A stretch of 64,000 nt of DNA. Origin: Octopus vulgaris. Lineage: Eukaryota. This document shows, piece by piece, positions 3,808 to 54,629 of this stretch. Position numbers and translations under genes: made by a program. The stretch is from the NCBI GenBank assembly GCA_951406725.2, contig OX597820.1, positions 115,320,001 to 115,384,000 of the forward strand. The letters run 5' to 3'. Positions within the stretch are counted from its first letter, which is position 1, and every line of letters starts with the position of its first letter. The notes beneath the pieces were generated by a model, which was not told where the DNA came from, ran no database searches, and worked only from the letters and a program-made list of their open reading frames with translations.

Positions 3808-4336
3808 ATTATTATTATTATTATTATTTCCTCAGTCTCAAAAGAATGAAAGGCAAAGTTGACCTTGGCTGAATTTGAGCCAAGAGTACTGAGAACTAGA
3901 ATAAATACTGCAAGATGGTTTGTTGACTGTGTCTGTTTGCCACTTTGTTAACTTCTCCATTCTTCCAACAAATCTTGCACCTATGTTGGAAGTCATCTTT
4001 TATTGTTGATTTATGAAAGATTTGAAAATGGATTCTGAATGGTCAGATCCTACTAAAAGTATAATGTTGATCACTGGACAAGACAGCATCACCACCCACT
4101 CTTGCTTCAGGCAATAGACTGACTGTAAAAGTTTTGCCAGTCTAGTTTGATGGGTTTTGTAAAAGACAGAATGACCCCACTGTCAATTTACTTGCACTGG
4201 TTGCAAGATATGATCTGTTGACCTTTTGGTTAATTGTTTGACTTAACTATCAATGTTCCTTAATATTATCTGGTTAATAATGCCCGTAGATGGATTTTAT
4301 CTAATTGATTTAATTAGTTTTATATTTTCATTTTAG

Positions 4337-4412
4337 GCTTGGTACCTTTTTCAGCCCATTGAGTCCTGCTATAATCACTGTGCAGCTTTTCATAATTTTC
4401 TATGTAAAAAGG
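4337..4412 (+). CDS. TMC7: TMC7-like exon (W-LGTFFSPLSPAIITVQLFIIFYVKR)
   Basis: ttttag/gtgagt; resembles TMC7 WIGAFFSPLLPAI...IIFYVK; phase consistent. Confidence 0.93.
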
Positions 4413-5680
4413 GTGAGTAAAATAGCATTGTCTAATGTTTGTAAGTTAAACCAGGGTCTAGGTGTTGAATGATCAACATTGAGGATACTGCTTCGCTTTA
4501 TTGTTCCCAGACCAATTTTATACAGGCAGAGATAATCATCAAAACAGTTCTGTATGAGGTAGTTAGAGATAGACACTGAAATCAGAAGCCGTAAACTCTA
4601 TTATACGATATGTTAAATATACTTGAAGCTATGTTAATGTTAATCTGTAGTAGTCTGTCTAGGACTGCATTATGCACTGGCCTTACATTTTGAAGATGGT
4701 AGGGTGTGATTTGAGGGGATTTTGCTGCTATTTCTTGCAGGTTTCCTCCTTTTCATAAATTAATATAAGTATTATAATGAGATAATTTCAATGAAAAAGA
4801 AGCAATGAGCAATTGCTAGAAGAATATTGAACAAAACCTAGTAACCAGTTGATCTAGCAAATGGGACCCCATCTCAGTGATGGGTAGGGGGCAATAATGT
4901 CATTGTGAGGAAGGCCATAAGCTTGCTAGCATCCAGTATAAGGAGCTTTCAATTGGTATCACCTGCATCTGCAAGTTGTTTGCAAAAGATCTCGCATTCA
5001 TTCACAAGATTTGGTTTTAAACCTTGTTGGAAAGAATCAATATTAATATGGAAGGGAAGTTTAGTGTGTTGTTCTGGACATGGAAGATTACTTCAAGGAT
5101 GAAGATAATAATGATGACAATCATGAATTTTGTTAATATACTAGTAGTAGCATTAAAATAACAATCACTTGTATAGTTGTAGCCTTGGCAAGAGCCAATG
5201 TGATTCTCTGGATCCCTGCAGGAATACATCCCCTGTTCAGGTGTCACATACTTGAAGTTGTTGTCTTCATTGATTACCAATTGACATATATTTCTCTCTC
5301 TCTCTTATTTATTTTGGTGTGTGTAGTGGGAGTACACTTGCCAGGTCATCATTAAATTTGACAGATGAATGATTATGGGCCATAGGGTATAAGTTTACAT
5401 ACCAACACCTAGTCTTTTGTTGTATCTCTTTGTAGAAAATTGTAGAAAAATTAAGTTTTATATATCCTAGTTCACTTAGATATACGAGAATTAGAAATGA
5501 ACTTTTGGAGGAAATGTTATCTGCAACTGACTAACTTCTTACTCAGAAATGAAGTAAAGTTTCAGCTTTTATTGACTTGGTTTTGATAAATCTGGGATCT
5601 AACATCATGCTAGCACTGCTAGAGCATGTAAGAACATTTGCTTCATTGAATTATTTTCATGTTTCTTTTTATTTTTACAG

Positions 5681-6604: not shown

Positions 6605-6945
6605 CATCATCGTTTCGTTTAGCGTCCGCTTTCCATGCTAGCATGGGTTGGACGGTTCAACTGGGGTCTGGGAAGCCAGAAGGCTGCACCAGGCCCAGTC
6701 TGATCTGGCAATGTTTCTACGGCTGGATGCCCTTCCTAACGCCAACCACTCCATGAGTGTAGTGGGTGCTTTTTACGTGCCACCGGCACAGGTGCCAGGC
6801 AAGACTGGCAAACGGCCACGATCGGATGGTGCTTTTTACATGCCACCGGCACGGAGACCAGATGAAGCTGGCAACGGCCACGATCGGATGGTGCTTTTTA
6901 TGTGCCACCGGCACGGGGGCCAGGCAAGGCTGGCAACGGCCAGAC
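6605..6945 (-). mobile_element. RTE-LINE 3' end / derived SINE with ~3 copies of the 61-bp unit
   Basis: (CAT)n tail, CCATGCTAGCATGG, GGATGCCCTTCCTAACGCCAACC core; same family as 20175-22430. More than 15 related copies in window. Confidence 0.85.
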
Positions 6946-11548: not shown

Positions 11549-11776
11549 CTTCATCATCATTATCATTTAATGTTTGTTTTCTCTGCTGGTATGGATTGGA
11601 GGGTTTGACTGGAGCTAGTAAGACCAGGGCCCACACCAGGCTCCATTTTTTGTTCTGGTATGGTTTCTACTACTGGATACTCTTCCTATTGACAGCCACT
11701 CCACAGTGTACTGATTGCTGTATATGTGGCACCAGCACCAGTATCAATTCTGCTGTGAGGGATAAGTCTTCTTGAC

Positions 11777-12740
11777 ATTATTTACAATTGACGGATATTT
11801 CTCCTCATCTTGTTTGTTGTTAACACAACGTTTCGGCTGATATACCCTCCAGCCTTCATCAGGTGTCTTGGGGAAATTTTGAACCTGGGTTCTCATTCCT
11901 AAGATATTTTTCGATGTTGTTGTTGTTGTTGTTGTTCAGGACATCCCTATACCACAAACTGACCTTCACTGGACGATACCTCAATTTCAACTCCCACCAT
12001 CCATACAGTGTAAAGAGAGGGATTTCTCAGTGCCTAAAACATTGAGCAATGAATATAAGTAGCGATCGTGATACACACCACAAAGAAATGATCAAGCTAA
12101 GTAACAATCTATTAAGCATCAACCACCCCAAAAGCATACTCTCTACTCCAATTATGAAGAAAAGGGAGGATGAAACTGATAAACTGTCCACAGTCTGTCT
12201 ACCCTATGTGAAAGGCCTCTCTGAAAAGATACAAAAGATATGTGGCCCATACGACATCAGGACAGTATTCAAGAGTAATACGACACTTCGCAAATATCTC
12301 CTTTGGGTAAAACCACCAATAGAGGAGAATATAACCAAAAACTGCATGTACTCCATCCCATGCAGCTGTGGTAGGTTATACAAAGGCAAAACATGCCGCC
12401 CCCTCAAAATAAGGGTAGAGGAACATCGCAAAGCTGCGACACGGGGAGATATTGATAAATTGGGTAAAGCTGATCATGTATGGAAAAATGGAGACCACCT
12501 CCCCCTGTGGGATGAAGTTAAAATAATAGACAGAGAACACCACTGGAAAATACGAAAACTAAAAGAAGCAGCACAAATGCTAGTTCCCCAGCATGTGGGA
12601 ACCGGTATTAAGGATGGATAGGAGAATATTAGATTTATAAGCCCTAAAATTCACTCCATAATTGCCTACAGGCATATGGTGTAGTGATTAAGAGCACAGA
12701 CTACTAACCCCAAGATTCCGAGTTCGATTCCAGACAGTAA

Positions 12741-12778
<38 letters not shown>

Positions 12779-12890
12779 TCGAAAAATACCTTAGGAATGA
12801 GAACTCAGCTGAAACATTGTGTTAACAACAAACAAGATGTGGACAAATATCTGTCAGTTGTAAGTAATGTAAATAATGTACATAATTCCC
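11777..12890 (+). mobile_element. 5'-truncated Penelope-like retroelement: RT C-terminus + GIY-YIG endonuclease (11941-12621), tRNA-like head, inverted pseudo-LTR
   Basis: TGRYLNFNSHHP, LPYVKGLSEKI, NCMYSIPCSCGRLYKGKTCRPLKIRVEEH, RKLKEA motifs; one stop; 11777-11940 is an inverted copy of 12738-12870. Confidence 0.92.
11822..11867 (-). ncRNA. Minimal hammerhead ribozyme, core intact
   Basis: GACAC-CTGATGA-A-GGCTG(10)CAGCC-GAAA-CG-TT-GTGTT on minus strand. Confidence 0.8.
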
Positions 12891-13387
12891 TATATCTTTA
12901 TTTTGTTAAATCTTCTTGAGTACAGCAAGGCACCAGATACTAAAAAGAACAACAATACTGCTAATGATAATTATTATTTCCAATTTAGACAGAACAGTAG
13001 CATTTGGCATGGAAGGATGTTGGGTGAATGTCGGAAAAATGGCCAGTATGAACAGACCAATTCTGAGGTTACACCTGTAAAAAAAAATGTAATATAAAAG
13101 GAGAAAGGTGCTCTCTACCCCTTTTTGACCAGGCTCCCATGGCTTTTATGACTTTTTCCCATTGGGAGTTTTAGTTATATTTTTTGGGGGGAGTTTTAGT
13201 TATATTTTTCGTTGTTATCTTGAATGTTTACACAGACTTTTCTTTTCGGACAAAACCCTTTCTACTTTTCGTCCTGTCTTTGTCCTTGCATGTTTTTTTT
13301 TTATTTATGTTAGCTCTTGTGGCCAATAAACCAGAATTAATTATTATTATTATTATTAATTATTCCTTTCCCTTTTTCTCTTTGTAG

Positions 13388-20174: not shown

Positions 20175-22430
20175 ATCATCATCATCATCATCATCATCAT
20201 TTAGCGTCCGTTTTCCATGCTAGCATGGGTTGGACGGTTTAACTGGGGTCTGTGAAGCCGGAAGGCTTCATCAGGCCCAGTCAGATTTGGCAGTGTTTCT
20301 ACGGCTGGATGCCCTTCCTAACGCCAACCACTCCGTGAGTGTAGTGGGTCCTTTTTACGTGCCACCTGCACAGGTGCCAGACAGAGCTGGCAAAAGGCCA
20401 CGAACGGATGGTGTTTTTCGTGCCACCGGCACGGGGGCCAGGCGAGGCTGGCAACGGACACGAGCGGATGGTGCTTTTACGTGCTACCGGCACGGGGGCC
20501 AGGCGAGGCTGGCAACGGACACGAGCGGATGGTGCTTTTACGTGCTACCGGCACGGGTGCCAGGCGAGGCTGGCAACGGACACGAGTGGATGGTGCTTTT
20601 ACGTGCTACCGGCACGGGGGCCACGCGAGGCTGGCAACGGACACGAGCGGATGGTGCTTTTACGTGCTACCGGCACGGGGGCCAGGCGAGGCTGGCAACG
20701 GACACGAGCGGATGGTGCTTTTACGTGCTACCGGCACGGGGGCCAGGCGAGGCTGGCAACGGACACGAGCGGATGGTGCTTTTACGTGCTACCGGCACGG
20801 GGTCCACGCGAGGCTGGCAACGGACACGAGCGGATGGTGCTTTTACGTGCTACCGGCACGGGGGCCACGCGAGGCTGGCAACGGACACGAGCGGATGGTG
20901 CTTTTACGTGCTACCGGCACGGGGGCCACTCGAGGCTGGCAACGGACACGAGTGGATGGTGCTTTTACGTGCTACCGGCACGGGGGCCACGCGAGGCTGG
21001 CAACGGACACGAGCGGATGGTGCTTTTACGTGCTACCGGCACGGGGGCCACGCGAGGCTGGCAACGGACACGAGCGGATGGTGCTTTTACGTGCTACCGG
21101 CACGGGGGCCACGCGAGGCTGGCAACGGACACGAGCGGATGGTGCTTTTACGTGCTACCGGCACGGGGGCCACGCGAGGCTGGCAACGGACACGAGCGGA
21201 TGGTGCTTTTACGTGCTACCGGCACGGGGGCCAGGCGAGGCTGGCAACGGACACGAGCGGATGGTGCTTTTACGTGCTACCGGCATGGGGGCCAGGCGAG
21301 GCTGGCAATGGACACGAGCGGATGGTGCTTTTACGTGCTACCGGCACGGGGGCCACGCGAGGCTGGCAACGGACACGAGTGGATGGTGCTTTTACGTGCT
21401 ACCGGCACGGGGGCCAGGCGAGGCTGGCAACGGACACGAGCGGATGGTGCTTTTACGTGCTACCGGCACGGGGGCCACGCGAGGCTGGCAACGGACACGA
21501 GCGGATGGTGCTTTTACGTGCTACCGGCACGGGGGCCAGGCGAGGCTGGCAACGGACACGAGCGGATGGTGCTTTTACGTGCTACCGGCACGGGGGCCAT
21601 GCGAGGCTGGCAACGGACACGAGTGGATGGTGCTTTTATGTGCTACCGGCACGGGGGCCAGGCGAGGCTGGCAACGGACACGAGTGGATGGTGCTTTTAC
21701 GTGCTACCGGCACGGGTGCCAGGCGAGGCTGGCAACGGACACGAGTGGATGGTGCTTTTATGTGCTACCGGCACGGGGGCCAGGCGAGGCTGGCAACGGA
21801 CACGAGTGGATGGTGCTTTTACGTGCTACCGGCACAGGTGCCAGGCGAGGCTGGCAACGGACACGAGTGGATGGTGCTTTTATGTGCTACCGGCACGGGG
21901 GCCAGGCGAGGCTGGCAACGGACACGAGCGGATGGTGCTTTTACGTGCTACCGGCACGGGGGCCACGCGAGGCTGGCAACGGACACGAGCAGATGGTGCT
22001 TTTACGTGCTACCGGCACGGGGGCCAGGCAGGGCTGGCAACGGACACGAACGGATGGTGCTTTTACATGCTACCAGCACGGGGGCCAGGCGAGGCTGGCA
22101 ACAGACACGAGTGGATGGTGCTTTACGTGCCTATGGCACAGATGCCAGGCGAGGCTGGCAACGGACAAACGATCGGATGGTTCGCTTAACCACAGCTGCA
22201 ATTTCCACTGATGTTGATTTGGTTTGATTTTGACTGTTCTCACTGGTCTTGCCGGGTCTTCTCACGCACAGCATACTTCCATAGGTCTCGGTCTCTAGTC
22301 ATTTCCTTGGTGAGACCTAAAGTTCGAAGGTCGTGCTTCACCACCTCGTCCCAGGTTTTCCTGGGTCTACCTCTTCCACAGGTTCCCTCAACTGCTAGAG
22401 TGTGGCACTTTTGCACACAACTATCTTCAC
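20175..22430 (-). mobile_element. RTE-clade LINE 3' fragment (ORF end + 3' UTR + (GAT)n tail) carrying expanded array
   Basis: VEGTCGRGRPRKTWDEVVKHDLRTLGL..DRDLWKYAV* at 22240-22430; tail at ~20175. Confidence 0.9.
20345..22180. repeat. GC-rich 61-bp tandem array, ~30 units
   Basis: Consensus CGGATGGTGCTTTTACGTGCTACCGGCACGGGGGCCAGGCGAGGCTGGCAACGGACACGAG. Confidence 0.97.
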
Positions 22431-23790: not shown

Positions 23791-24600
23791 CATCATCATC
23801 ATCATCATTGTTGTTTAACGTCCGCTTTCCATGCTGGCATGGGTTGGATCGTTTGACTGAGGGCTGGCAAGCCAGAATGCTGTACCAGGCTCCAATCTGA
23901 TCTAGCAAGGTTTCTACAGCTGGATGCTCTTCCTAACACCAACCACTCCAAGAGTATAGTGCGTACTTTCTATGTGACACCGGCACAAGGGCTAGTCAGG
24001 CAGCACTGGCAATGACCACGCTTGAATGGTGCTTTTTACATGCCACCGGCATGGGAGCCAGTCAGGTGGTACTGGCAATGACCCACACTTGAATGGTGCT
24101 TTTAACGTGCCACTGGCATGGGTGCCAGTCAGGCGGTACTGGCATTGACCACGACAATGACTTCACTTGACTCAACAGGTCTTCGCAAGCACAGTTTATT
24201 GACCAATGATTGAAAGGTACTCTTAAATGGGCTGGTTATGCTGCACTGGCATAGGCCATGGTTATGGTCTTCTCAAGCACAGCGTATCTCCAAAGGTCAT
24301 GGTCACTTGCCATCGCCTCCATGAAGCCCAATGTTCGAAGGTCGTGCTTCACCACCTCATCCCATGTCTTCCTGGACTCCCTCTTTCACAAGTTCCTTCC
24401 ATTGTTAGGGAGTGACACTTCTCCACACAGCTGTCTTCACCCATATGCAACATATGACCATACCAGTGCAGTCGTCTCTCTCTTGCACACCACATTTGAT
24501 GCTTCTTATGTCCAACTTTTCTCTCCGGGCACTTACACTCTGTTGTGTATACACACTGACATTACACATCAAGCGGAGCATACTAGCTTCATTCGTCTTA
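23791..24600 (-). mobile_element. RTE LINE 3' fragment, older copy
   Basis: NEASMLRLMCNVS..REKLDIRSIKCGVQER; 3' UTR with diverged 61-bp units. Confidence 0.85.
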
Positions 24601-41239: not shown

Positions 41240-41666
41240 TAGATGCAGGTATAGCTGTAGAACTTTGTTTCCCAACCACATAGTTCCAAGTTCAATCCCA
41301 CTGCATGGCACCTTGGGCAACTGTTTTTTGTTTTTTTTTTGGTGGGGCTGACCAAATCTTTGAGTGGATTTGATAAACAGAAACTGAAAAAAGCCTGTTC
41401 TACATGTGTGTTTGTGTGTGTGCATGTATTTGACCCCCATTACACCTCTTGACAACTGGTGTTGGTTTGTTTACATCCCTAACCCTAACTTAGCAGTTCA
41501 GCACAAGACACCAACAGAATAAATACCAGGTTTTGAAGAAAAGGTGCTGGGGTCAATTTGTTTGACTAAAAAGTCTTCAAGGTGGTGCCCCAGAATGGCC
41601 AGAATCAAACAACTGAAACAAGAAGGTAAAAGAGAATGTAACAGAATCCACAAAGCCATACGATAC

Positions 41667-41854: not shown

Positions 41855-42036
41855 CTGGTCAGAAGAGAAGAACAAAATGGAGGCACAATATTAAATGGAT
41901 GTCACTGGCAAAGACAACTTTCACCCTTTAACATTCAGGTTTCTCTGTCAAACGTAACACTTATTTATTTATATTGCTTCGAATTAATCATGCAATATCT
42001 CGTAGCTTCAAAAGTTTGACGATTTGATTGTTATAC

Positions 42037-42492
42037 GTTATTTACATTTGACGGATATTTGTCCTCATCTTGTTTGTTGTTAACACAACGTTTCAGCTGA
42101 TACACCCTCCAGCCTTCATCAGGTGTCTTGGGAAAATTTTGAACCTGGGTTCTCATTACTAAGGTATTTTTCGATGTTATTATTATAATTATTATTCAGG
42201 CCACTACTTGGAATTGAACTACGCCATATGCCCATGGACATATGGTGTAGTGGTTAAGAGCATGGGCTACTAACCCCAGATTCCAAGCTCAATTCCAGGC
42301 AGTGACCTGAATAATAATAACATTGAAAAATACCTTAGTAATGAGAACCCAGGTTCAAAATCTCCCCAAGACACCTGATGAAGGCTGGAGGGCACATCAG
42401 CCGAAACATAGTGTTAACAACAAACAAGATGAGGACAAATATCTGTCAAATGTAAATAATGTACATAATTCTCATCTCTTAAATATAAAACT
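42037..42492 (+). mobile_element. Non-autonomous tRNA-headed Penelope-like hairpin element with an HHR on each arm (42082-42127 on -, 42370-42415 on +)
   Basis: Same family as 11777-12890; apex CCATGG at 42232-42237; A box TGGTGTAGTGG; inserted into a TTAA MITE. Confidence 0.85.
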
Positions 42493-43049
42493 GATGTAAT
42501 TGTTATGTTTAGAATAATATTATAGGGTAGATGTGAGGGATCAGATCTGGCTATTTGAAACACAAGACATGTGGAATATTTTGGTCAGATATGGCAGGTT
42601 TAAATGCTGAATAGTTAAGAGTCATGGGTAAAAAAATAAAAAATTTAGGCACAGGAGTGGCTGTGTGCTAAGTAGCTTGCTTCTCCACCACATAGTTCTG
42701 GGTTCAGTCCCACTATGTAGCACCTTGGACAAGTGTCTTGTACTATAGCCTCGGGCCGACAAAGCCTTGTGAGTAAATTTGGTAGACAGAAACTGAAAGA
42801 AGCCCGTCGTATATATATATATATATATGTTTGTGTGTCTGTGTTTTTCCCCTTCAACATCACTTGACAACTGATGCTGGTGTGTTTATGTCCCCGTAAA
42901 AAAGACCGATAGAATAAGTGGTAGGCTTACAAAGAATAAGTCCTGGGGTCGATTTGCTTGACTAAAGGCAGTGCTCCAGCCTCGGAAGGGAACTTTCTAG
43001 GTGCAATCCTATAGTCATTCATGAGTGAAAGGGGTCTCTACCCTCTACT

Positions 43050-52803: not shown

Positions 52804-54629
52804 TAAATTAATCAAAATAAAAACATGATGCCAAGGATTCAGCGGTACATATGTTTCGGGCCTTTATTAGACGGATTTATAACAATGCATAATGTGGCTA
52901 TTCTTCAGCTGCGCAACTACTACCTCAAGGACATGTATTACATCAAAAATTCTACGTTGGGGATGCAAATCCTCTCATTCGCGTATGACACAATGCGGCA
53001 ACAGCATAAAAATGAAGCGTCCATCTCGTCCTTCTCTCAATGTAGAATGAGGAAGTTTGGATGTTGAGGTAATATAAATAAATGAATAAATAAATATATA
53101 CATATATAAGTACAGACAGACGTGAAGGAACCTGGTAATAAGAGCAAATAGGGATAAAGATGGAGGGGCGAGAATACAGGACGAAGGATAAAAATATATA
53201 AAAAGTGTAAGTATAGAAAAATATAAAAATGTAGAGTATAAAGATATAAAGAGATATAAAAATATTAAAAAATATAAATGAATATAAAGGTATAAAGTTA
53301 TAAAAAAATAAAATTAAAAATAAAAACAAGGATAAGGGATATATAGTAGTTACGGACCAAACATGGTGGTCAGGAAAATGACAAATTCTGGTTGTAGAAG
53401 CTTTGGGTGTCATAAATCAACCGGGGCGTCTGGGGACCTAGTGTATTGTAAATTAGAGTTGTTGAGCCGCTTATCTAGTTCTTCGTAACGTATTAAGTGG
53501 TCATCATGTACATACGTATACGCCTGGATACATACACCATATACATGCGCACATATATGCAACTACACGCATACAAGCATACATACGTACTCTCGTATAA
53601 ACATATACAGATATATATGGAAAAAGGCGCATGTAGTTGGGTACACGAACCGACGCGCATACGTACGTACGTACATACATACACTCACATGCGTTCATAT
53701 AGGTGTAAGTGCGAGTGTGCCTATATGAACGCATGTGAGTGTATGTATGTACGTACATATGCGCGTCGGTTCGTGTACCCAACTACATGCGCCTTTTTCC
53801 ATATATATCTGTATATGTTTACACGAGAGTACGTATGTATGATTGTAGTTGCGTATGCGTGCGTATATGTGCGCGTGTATATGGGTGTATGTATCCAGGC
53901 GTGTATGTATGTACATGATGACCACTTAATACGTTACGAAGAACTAGATAAGCGGCTCAACAACTCTAATTTACAATACACTAGGTCCCCAGACGCCCCG
54001 GTTGATTTACGACACCCAAAGCTTCTACAACCAGAATTTGTCATTTTCCTGACCACCATGTTTGGTCCGTAACTACTATATATCCCTTATCCTTGTTTTT
54101 TATTTTTTATTTTATTTTTTTATAACTTTATACCTTTATATTCATTTATATTTTTTTATATTTTTTAATATTTTTTTATATCTCTTTATATCTTTATACT
54201 CTACATTTTTATATTTTTCTATACTTACACTTTTTATATATTTTTTTATCCTTCGTCCTGTATTCTTGCCCCTCCATCTTTATCCCAATTTGCTCTTATT
54301 ACCAGGTTCCTTCACGTCTGTCTGTACTTATATATGTATATATTTATTTATTCATTTATTTATATTACCTCAACATCCAAACTTCCTCATTCTACATTGA
54401 GAGAAGGACGAGATGAACGCTTCATTTTTATGCTGTTGCCGCATTGTGTCATACGCGAATGAGAGGATTTGCATCCCCAACGTAGAATTTTTGATGTAAT
54501 ACATGTCCTTGAGGTAGTAGTTGTGCGCGGCTGAAGAAGGCCACATTATGCATTGTTATAAATCCGTCTAATAAAGGCCCGAAACATATGTACCGCTGAA
54601 TCCTTGGCATCATGTTTTTATTTTGATTA

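Follow-up and report, generated by a model that had tools for sequence, protein, structure and literature searches.

The closest described counterparts of the octopus feature analysed here are Penelope-like elements (PLEs) and short hammerhead-bearing repeats. The Anolis element PAc, a PLE of the Penelope/Poseidon clade (Frangieh et al. 2024, PMC11167929), shares with it a single ORF in which RT is followed by GIY-YIG, and a pLTR and hammerhead that overlap the ORF start. According to the available part of that report, PAc reverse transcription starts at two sites inside the ORF start, which gives rise to a tail, both target strands are cut and extended, and uncleaved RNA is the main substrate and is the form inserted. 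The Penelope of the rotifer Adineta vaga (Arkhipova et al. 2013, PMC3846280) likewise has inverted pLTRs, an ORF start within the pLTR, a 31-bp tail and target-site duplications (TSDs) of 8-10 bp, and the palindromes at the 5' end of its pLTRs have already been interpreted as self-priming. It differs in its low copy number and in its proposed promoter, of the TATA+Inr (Pol II) type, and the part of the report available describes no tRNA head. An internal TATA-less promoter is reported for the PLE of D. virilis (PMC2377424). The schistosome repeats Sm-alpha and Sj-alpha (PMC6765202, PMC2770079) share a type-I hammerhead downstream of a tRNA-related Pol III promoter, as well as a high copy number. 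As far as these sources go, however, they are non-coding, are arranged as tandem head-to-tail units released by ribozyme cleavage and are not described as the pLTR of an autonomous element. Non-LTR retrozymes (bioRxiv 10.64898/2026.07.22.740005) are, in the text available, pLTR-derived, hammerhead-bearing short repeats that depend on PLE proteins; they form tandem arrays for which a circular RNA intermediate is proposed.

The octopus pLTR, unlike that of PAc as described in PMC11167929, starts with a tRNA-derived cassette carrying A and B boxes, at whose start the 5' ends of copies pile up, and the ATG lies ca. 30 nt before the hammerhead. In contrast to the descriptions of Sm-alpha and Sj-alpha (PMC6765202, PMC2770079), the octopus copies are arranged head-to-head, include the start of the ORF and have ends that are not enriched at the hammerhead cut site; compared with the retrozymes (bioRxiv 10.64898/2026.07.22.740005), they occur as inverted pairs scattered through the genome, flanked by TSDs and provided with a tRNA head. 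The features of the locus and of a second family member in the window, which is the whole stretch of 64,000 nt of Octopus vulgaris DNA analysed here, are as follows.

42022..42034, unstranded: left target-site duplication, ca. 13 bp, 11/13 matching the right copy
42035..42219, minus strand: left tailless arm with B box, (AAT)n, ORF start and hammerhead, stopping 30 nt before the tail
42082..42127, minus strand: left-arm minimal type-I hammerhead, in which U replaces C11.1 while the core and the palindromic helix III are preserved
42218..42233, minus strand: 16-nt fold-back stub, the inverted head +1..+16, with AGT microhomology to the B box; 37 nt missing
42230..42239, unstranded: apex, the native mini-palindrome at head -6..+4 with a 2-nt loop, here AT
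42236..42307, plus strand: tRNA-derived head, closest to tRNA-Arg among 30 genomic tRNAs
42243-42253, plus strand: A box, within the head
42287-42296, plus strand: degenerate B box, within the head
42310..42321, plus strand: (AAT)n spacer, in many copies expanded or a target of insertion
42341..42493, plus strand: N-terminal 51 codons of the Penelope ORF, with a 1-nt loss near the end in this copy
42370..42415, plus strand: right-arm minimal type-I hammerhead, lying inside the ORF start, with mutations in helix III and in the cleavage triplet
42464..42493, plus strand: PLE 'tail', a 30-nt extension on one arm only
42494..42506, unstranded: right target-site duplication
11775..11936, minus strand: tailless inverted arm of the second family member, hammerhead intact
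11937..12640, plus strand: 3' part of the ORF of the second member (RT thumb and GIY-YIG), with one in-frame stop and one deletion
12641..12898, plus strand: 30-nt 3' UTR of the second member, followed by the family's tRNA head and a pLTR that has lost its hammerhead

The feature consists of two inverted arms with 87% identity, the left at 42034-42233 (minus strand) and the right, of 258 nt, at 42236-42493 (plus strand), flanked by TSDs of ca. 13 bp (42022-42034 and 42494-42506) with an 8-nt exact core. The original prediction had taken the left arm for an inverted copy of the right one; the inversion is real, but the left arm is not a full copy, lacking 37 nt of the head, where it is joined at the AGT microhomology, and the last 30 nt. 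The fold-back centre had rightly been placed at the head start, the apex reading GCCC-AT-GG (42230-42237) with its loop (42234-42235) directly before head +1 (42236), and the A box, degenerate B box, (AAT)n (42310-42318) and hammerhead were found at the positions first given. The statement that no ORF is present, on the other hand, proved wrong, as both arms carry an open Penelope N-terminus, with ATGs at 42341 (51 codons) and at 42156 on the minus strand (40 codons). This copy reads as a tail arm followed by a 16-nt snap-back, after which the second arm is attached through microhomology; it would be explained equally well by a full hairpin that later suffered a deletion.

Several other repeats lie in the window. 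The hairpin lies between two copies of a different SINE-like repeat that is abundant and dispersed (ca. 41245-41470 and 42650-42960), and this repeat showed no similarity to the tRNA head at E<1. At 20353-22181 a GC-rich 61-bp unit is repeated in tandem, with 30 copies at 95% identity; the array, which also occurs at 6765-6942 and 23994-24150, seems to have originated from a dispersed repeat. A 416-nt inverted repeat (52911-53326 and 54111-54526; 85% complementary, 784 nt apart) is possibly a MITE or foldback element.

A DNA search with the feature against the 2.80-Gb assembly, in which the window lies at G000:C7:115.32-115.38 Mb, gave 3332 candidates. Among the best 30 of these, four copies (L004, L007, L012, L013) have coding sequence on the upstream side of the head, and so has the second window copy (11937-12898), whose translation comprises an RT thumb and a GIY-YIG domain. 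When the search was made from the coding side, the head or pLTR was found downstream of the stop in 29 of 30 GIY-YIG-coding copies, the head beginning 30 nt after the RT/GIY-YIG stop codon. Walking upstream yielded a 569-aa open RT+EN frame together with near-complete decayed copies. Homologues of this frame at E<=1e-30 numbered 2744 among 7999 scored, and some of them carry PF01541. The element protein itself matched RVT_1 with an E value of 2.7e-6 and 27.7 bits, below the cut-off of 29.6, and a Pfam scan of it gave no GIY-YIG match; the GIY-YIG domain was assigned from the motif YSIPCSCG..Y.GET, which we take to mark it. At the other end of the element, the fixed 3' end of the feature runs directly into the ORF N-terminus in L105, L097, L133 and L125, and the head precedes the N-terminus in L133, L125 and L121. 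The frame of L133, an ORF-continuing copy, shares 47% identity with the N-terminus of P0003, an intact relative of 847 aa, along a stretch of 102 aa. Of 30 ORF-start copies, L133 alone starts at the head with an unrelated flank, a scarcity that counts against the reading preferred below. The 3' half of the arm is the ORF start. The complete element measures ca. 2.9 kb and reads tRNA head, (AAT)n, ATG, hammerhead and tail, which make up the pLTR, then the rest of the ORF (RT, GIY-YIG), stop, 30 nt and the same pLTR again.

Because the head and pLTR are linked to the ORF, and because the frame is open in both arms and matches P0003, the 258-nt arm is the pLTR of a ca. 2.9-kb Penelope/Poseidon-type element and no free-standing SINE. 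The separate non-autonomous SINE of the original prediction has accordingly been abandoned: the whole sequence, head included, belongs to an autonomous element (29/30 GIY-YIG copies) and contains its ORF start. Mobilisation by a Penelope RT/GIY-YIG rather than by a LINE was upheld, given the tie between head or pLTR and ORF, the PLE two-site ends and the lack of a LINE-type tail. The element has the organisation of EN+ PLEs, namely a single ORF with RT and then a C-terminal GIY-YIG, and a tandem or partially tandem pLTR containing the ORF start; domain order and hammerhead position point to Penelope/Poseidon rather than Neptune/Nematis. The column-majority divergence of the copies is ca. 6%, an estimate biased low, and no intact full-length copy was seen among the copies examined. 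The closest protein relatives (clusters of P0003, P0149 and P0166) are 55-69% identical; an IMG/VR search returned no relatives, and a PDB search returned weak group II-like RT matches only. One relative with 53% identity, the P0006 cluster, is annotated from the barnacle Amphibalanus amphitrite, and the clade may be patchily distributed among marine invertebrates.

The same searches brought up other elements. The ORF downstream of L050 was considered as a tandem copy and turned out to be an unrelated LINE, which lies repeatedly at the (AAT)n tract of the pLTR (L050/L061, L424, L211, L228) and whose protein, we presume, resembles Dong/R4. A young, C-rich and different Penelope-like family (L345-L365) comprises many near-identical intact frames of ca. 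880-1000 aa, for example at G000:C3:151516148-151520362 and in three copies ca. 6.2 kb apart at C10:97.81-97.82 Mb; it shows no similarity to the tRNA head family and is probably recently active. A third PLE family (G000:C1:37064735-37066069 and 8 similar places) has stop-free frames of 670-775 aa and was matched in two pieces ca. 45 nt apart in most of its places. A 278-aa Tc1/mariner-like transposase frame lies beside one family copy (L065, oriented 4155-4990).

In the window, Rfam at the gathering score and ARAGORN at default settings gave no match, and Rfam at E<=1 on 8 family loci gave no tRNA match, only microsatellite-driven miRNA noise. ARAGORN with a relaxed threshold gave 20 hits with an ACT anticodon on family loci. 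Three correctly oriented, better-preserved heads matched genomic tRNA-Arg genes with z scores of 6.8-8.0, compared with z<=1.5 for a mis-oriented fourth stretch, and it is on these better-preserved copies that the tRNA likeness of the window head rests. tRNA-Arg was the best-scoring candidate parent in a comparison confined to 30 genomic tRNAs of 9 anticodon types; tRNA-Ser and tRNA-Thr, which had been considered as parents, were unsupported. In 40 head-anchored loci (from the first 100 listed of 2302 exact head matches), canonical A and B boxes at the correct spacing are the majority state. The AAT tract of the family follows the head in all 40, and a downstream pLTR is found within 700 nt in 32; the other 8 break at or just after the microsatellite. 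The head was thus not seen as the independent SINE that had been named as the alternative outcome. No poly-A, LINE-type or tandem-repeat 3' tail was found, the 3' end being fixed, non-repetitive and inside the ORF N-terminus.

The 28-mer of the tail has 4040 exact matches, and copy geometry was examined in the first 90 of them, which all lie on contig C1. An inverted arm is present in 62 of the 90 tail-anchored loci, and in 49 of these 62 it ends at reference positions 239-259, 24-44 nt short of the tail end at 283; such a one-arm tail is described as a PLE signature (PMC8557442). Of the 53 pairs that could be scored, 34 have words resembling a TSD, against 0.58 under the null. The copies are dispersed head-to-head pairs and not head-to-tail tandem arrays of the Sm-alpha or retrozyme type. 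Short copies far outnumber long ones: exact 28-mers genome-wide number 4040 for the tail, 2302 for the head (with two degenerate positions) and 592 for the 3' UTR just upstream. Minor variants are common to both arms of one insertion 3.5-fold more often than in shuffled pairs (44 pairs; 30 shared in 5223 columns, a value reached in 0/1000 shuffles), which fits one template or one source locus, and gene conversion too.

The 5' ends of the arms are far from randomly spread. Against a background termination of 0.0024 per nt, 46 of the 66 arms that reach +10 end in -19..+10 (4.7 expected), as had been predicted of the inversion junctions, and 20 read through. The excess holds for tail arms (25/36; expected 2.9) and inverted arms (21/30; expected 1.7) alike. 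Among the 40 head-anchored loci, 15 end at -6..-3 and none at -14..-7; four end at -16/-15, all of them fold-backs, and in 5 the sequence continues past the head into the 3' UTR or ORF. The ends thus stop sharply at about -6 of the head, and termination is already raised at +11..+20.

The hammerhead at 42370-42415 is of the minimal type I. Its stems I and II form; helix III, a short palindrome, carries mutations in the right arm, whereas the left arm (42082-42127, minus strand) has kept it whole. The full feature set reported for minimal type-I hammerheads of PLEs (PMC4209133), taken here as an extra base after A9, G10.1-C11.1 and a palindromic 15.2-16.2, is present in 25 of 31 pattern-matched arms. 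Trimming of the transcript by this ribozyme had been proposed. The cut site was suspected of being another point at which 5' ends accumulate, but over all arms examined and with three references the ends were not enriched there (12-15 versus 9-11 expected; P 0.15-0.44), and the ribozyme lies in the middle of the element; the proposed trimming is thus unsupported. Insertion probably uses RNA in which the predicted hammerhead has stayed uncleaved, and the lack of enrichment at the cut site agrees with PAc and its uncleaved main substrate.

The sense strand is poor in runs of four T, at which Pol III transcription would be expected to stop. We counted 48 TTTT against 295 expected (126 segments, 139 kb in total) and, by column majority, 0 in 2632 columns, with no position common to more than 4 copies; this depletion comes from one lineage. 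As a control, ORFs from 80 metagenome PLE loci were used, of which 57 with frames of at least 300 aa were kept and 23 dropped. These contained 580 TTTT against 387 expected, with a ratio below 0.25 in 1/50, and a young PLE family of the same genome (9/21 loci examined) has 5-14 runs per frame. T follows TTT in 0 of 13 cases here and in 579 of 1821 in the control ORFs (P ca. 0.007, calculated by hand). On the other hand, synonymous shuffles of natural frames expect few T4 runs because codon use is TTC-biased (292:124), a first-order Markov model expects only 2.4 runs (P0=0.088), and runs of four G share the depletion (57 versus 150 expected) and are likewise missing from the majority sequence. 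A TATA-like TTTATAA lies at -36..-30, overlapping the ORF stop and ca. 25-30 nt before -6, a position that suits Pol II as well as TFIIIB. Three raw-read RNA-seq runs from one study of another organism showed both strands equally, with no pile-up of read begins or ends, a pattern that says nothing about the polymerase. Pol III initiation at the pLTR, ca. 6 nt upstream of the head, is favoured indirectly and with moderate confidence by the sharp 5' edge and the T4-free sense strand.

The strongest competing explanation, which we regard as unlikely though worth weighing, keeps the same pLTR and places a Pol II core-promoter start at -6, active only in tandem or partial-tandem copies; the tRNA-derived stretch would then be a captured 5' UTR and the lack of T4 a matter of composition. 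The TATA-like motif upstream of the 5' edge and the non-significant T4 absence under the Markov-1 expectation both speak for it, as do the Pol II-type promoters known from the PLEs of D. virilis and A. vaga, and a capped RNA would account for translation. Against it, the A and B boxes are kept at the correct spacing, the absence of T after TTT departs from the control ORFs, and the large excess of short copies starting at the head is hard to explain without termination soon after the first pLTR.

The apex bears on how the inverted pairs arose. The ORF-linked form reads GCCC-AC-GGGC across -6..+4, with a loop of AC in place of the AT of the window copy, a change consistent with CpG decay, and the native junction is an imperfect 10-bp hairpin. 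Exact counts genome-wide gave 268 native junctions and 227 perfect palindromes with the same 2-nt loop, which supports the snap-back proposed at the head start. Among 42 head starts that are intact, the sequence folds back in 13, is native in 7 and belongs to neither class in 22; the folded-back stretch is often just 9-21 nt long, after which the sequence switches to the opposite arm or to flanking DNA. The same junction was found in the RNA reads of another organism (393, 306 and 309 reads in 3 runs of one study). In some copies (L221, L409) the apex loop has the orientation opposite to the simple model; post-insertion deletions therefore blur the junction map.

It is improbable, in our assessment, that there is no start site at the head at all and that reverse transcription on long transcripts stalls and folds back at the hairpin or tRNA-like structure, the short copies being 5' truncations. 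The imperfect hairpin at the native junction could stop reverse transcriptase without a start site, which would go with the termination already raised at +11..+20 and with the 20/66 arms that continue into the ORF; in rotifer PLEs, moreover, the 5' ends of pLTRs have palindromes too, and the part of PMC3846280 available mentions no tRNA head for them. A reverse transcriptase coming from the 3' side, however, would meet the hairpin base at about +10, yet the ends reach the sharp -6 edge with 0 at -14..-7, non-fold-back junctions fall at -6..+1 as well, and the T4 absence is left unexplained. It is very improbable that an independent tRNA SINE family acquired its 3' end from Penelope, or that a SINE driven by a LINE landed in some of the Penelope copies: short copies dominate the counts, and a separate lineage could in principle grow from solo copies by renewed amplification, but the head is integral to 29/30 ORF-bearing copies, 40/40 head-anchored copies continue into the family spacer, and the ends follow the PLE two-site pattern with no poly-A or LINE-type tail.

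The reading that we prefer, and hold to be fairly probable from the sequence evidence, is that the feature is a short head-to-head insertion of a Penelope/Poseidon-type pLTR whose tRNA-derived first 72 nt likely serve as an internal Pol III promoter. Pol III would start at about -6 in any pLTR, solo copies included, and would read through the T4-free sense strand. The element's own protein would bind the ORF-start region, and both target strands would be cut ca. 10-15 nt apart. Reverse transcription would be primed at two sites ca. 30 nt apart, as in vitro for Anolis PAc; the cDNA reaching the RNA 5' end would fold back on the GCCC/GGGC mini-palindrome and self-prime, and the two ends would be joined, often with microhomology deletions, into a hairpin. 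A stronger version, in which the autonomous PLE is transcribed by Pol III end to end from a captured tRNA promoter, the strand of its 2.6-kb ORF is purged of TTTT, the uncapped RNA is translated and the short RNAs of solo pLTRs act as the element's own SINE, is only tentatively entertained.

The novelty claimed at the outset was weaker than stated, as Sm-alpha is a known Pol III tRNA-related SINE with a hammerhead and self-priming palindromes of PLEs had already been described. Fold-backs, tails, pLTR hammerheads and schistosome tRNA-hammerhead SINEs are already known; what is likely new is a Penelope that has a cassette of tRNA origin, likely for Pol III, at the start of its terminal repeat and that gives rise to SINE-like snap-back copies of itself. 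None of the titles and abstracts searched describes a tRNA promoter in the pLTR of an autonomous PLE, and Repbase or Dfam may have a name for the family. Twhin is the name of an octopus SINE; a literature search for it found unrelated papers only. The O. vulgaris annotation paper, in the part available, gives totals for SINEs and Penelope elements and a SINE/LINE burst at JC 0.065, close to the 6% divergence of the family, and its supplement as available mentions neither hammerhead nor pLTR. The family may be split between the SINE and PLE classes in automated octopus annotations.

From the 4040 exact 28-mer tail matches at a divergence of at least 6%, the copy number is estimated at tens of thousands. 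So many copies with a defined RNA 5' end are a natural read-out of the integration mechanism of PLEs, covering the two priming sites, the 10-15 bp stagger and the snap-back at the template end. One sequence would serve both as the start of the master element and as its own SINE-like passenger, and an mRNA made by Pol III, as in the stronger version, would be unusual for any animal gene. If Pol III drives the element, a SINE arises here without a separate partner, through a retroelement capturing a tRNA promoter into its terminal repeat; this would be a candidate origin for tRNA-hammerhead elements such as the schistosome Sm-alpha.
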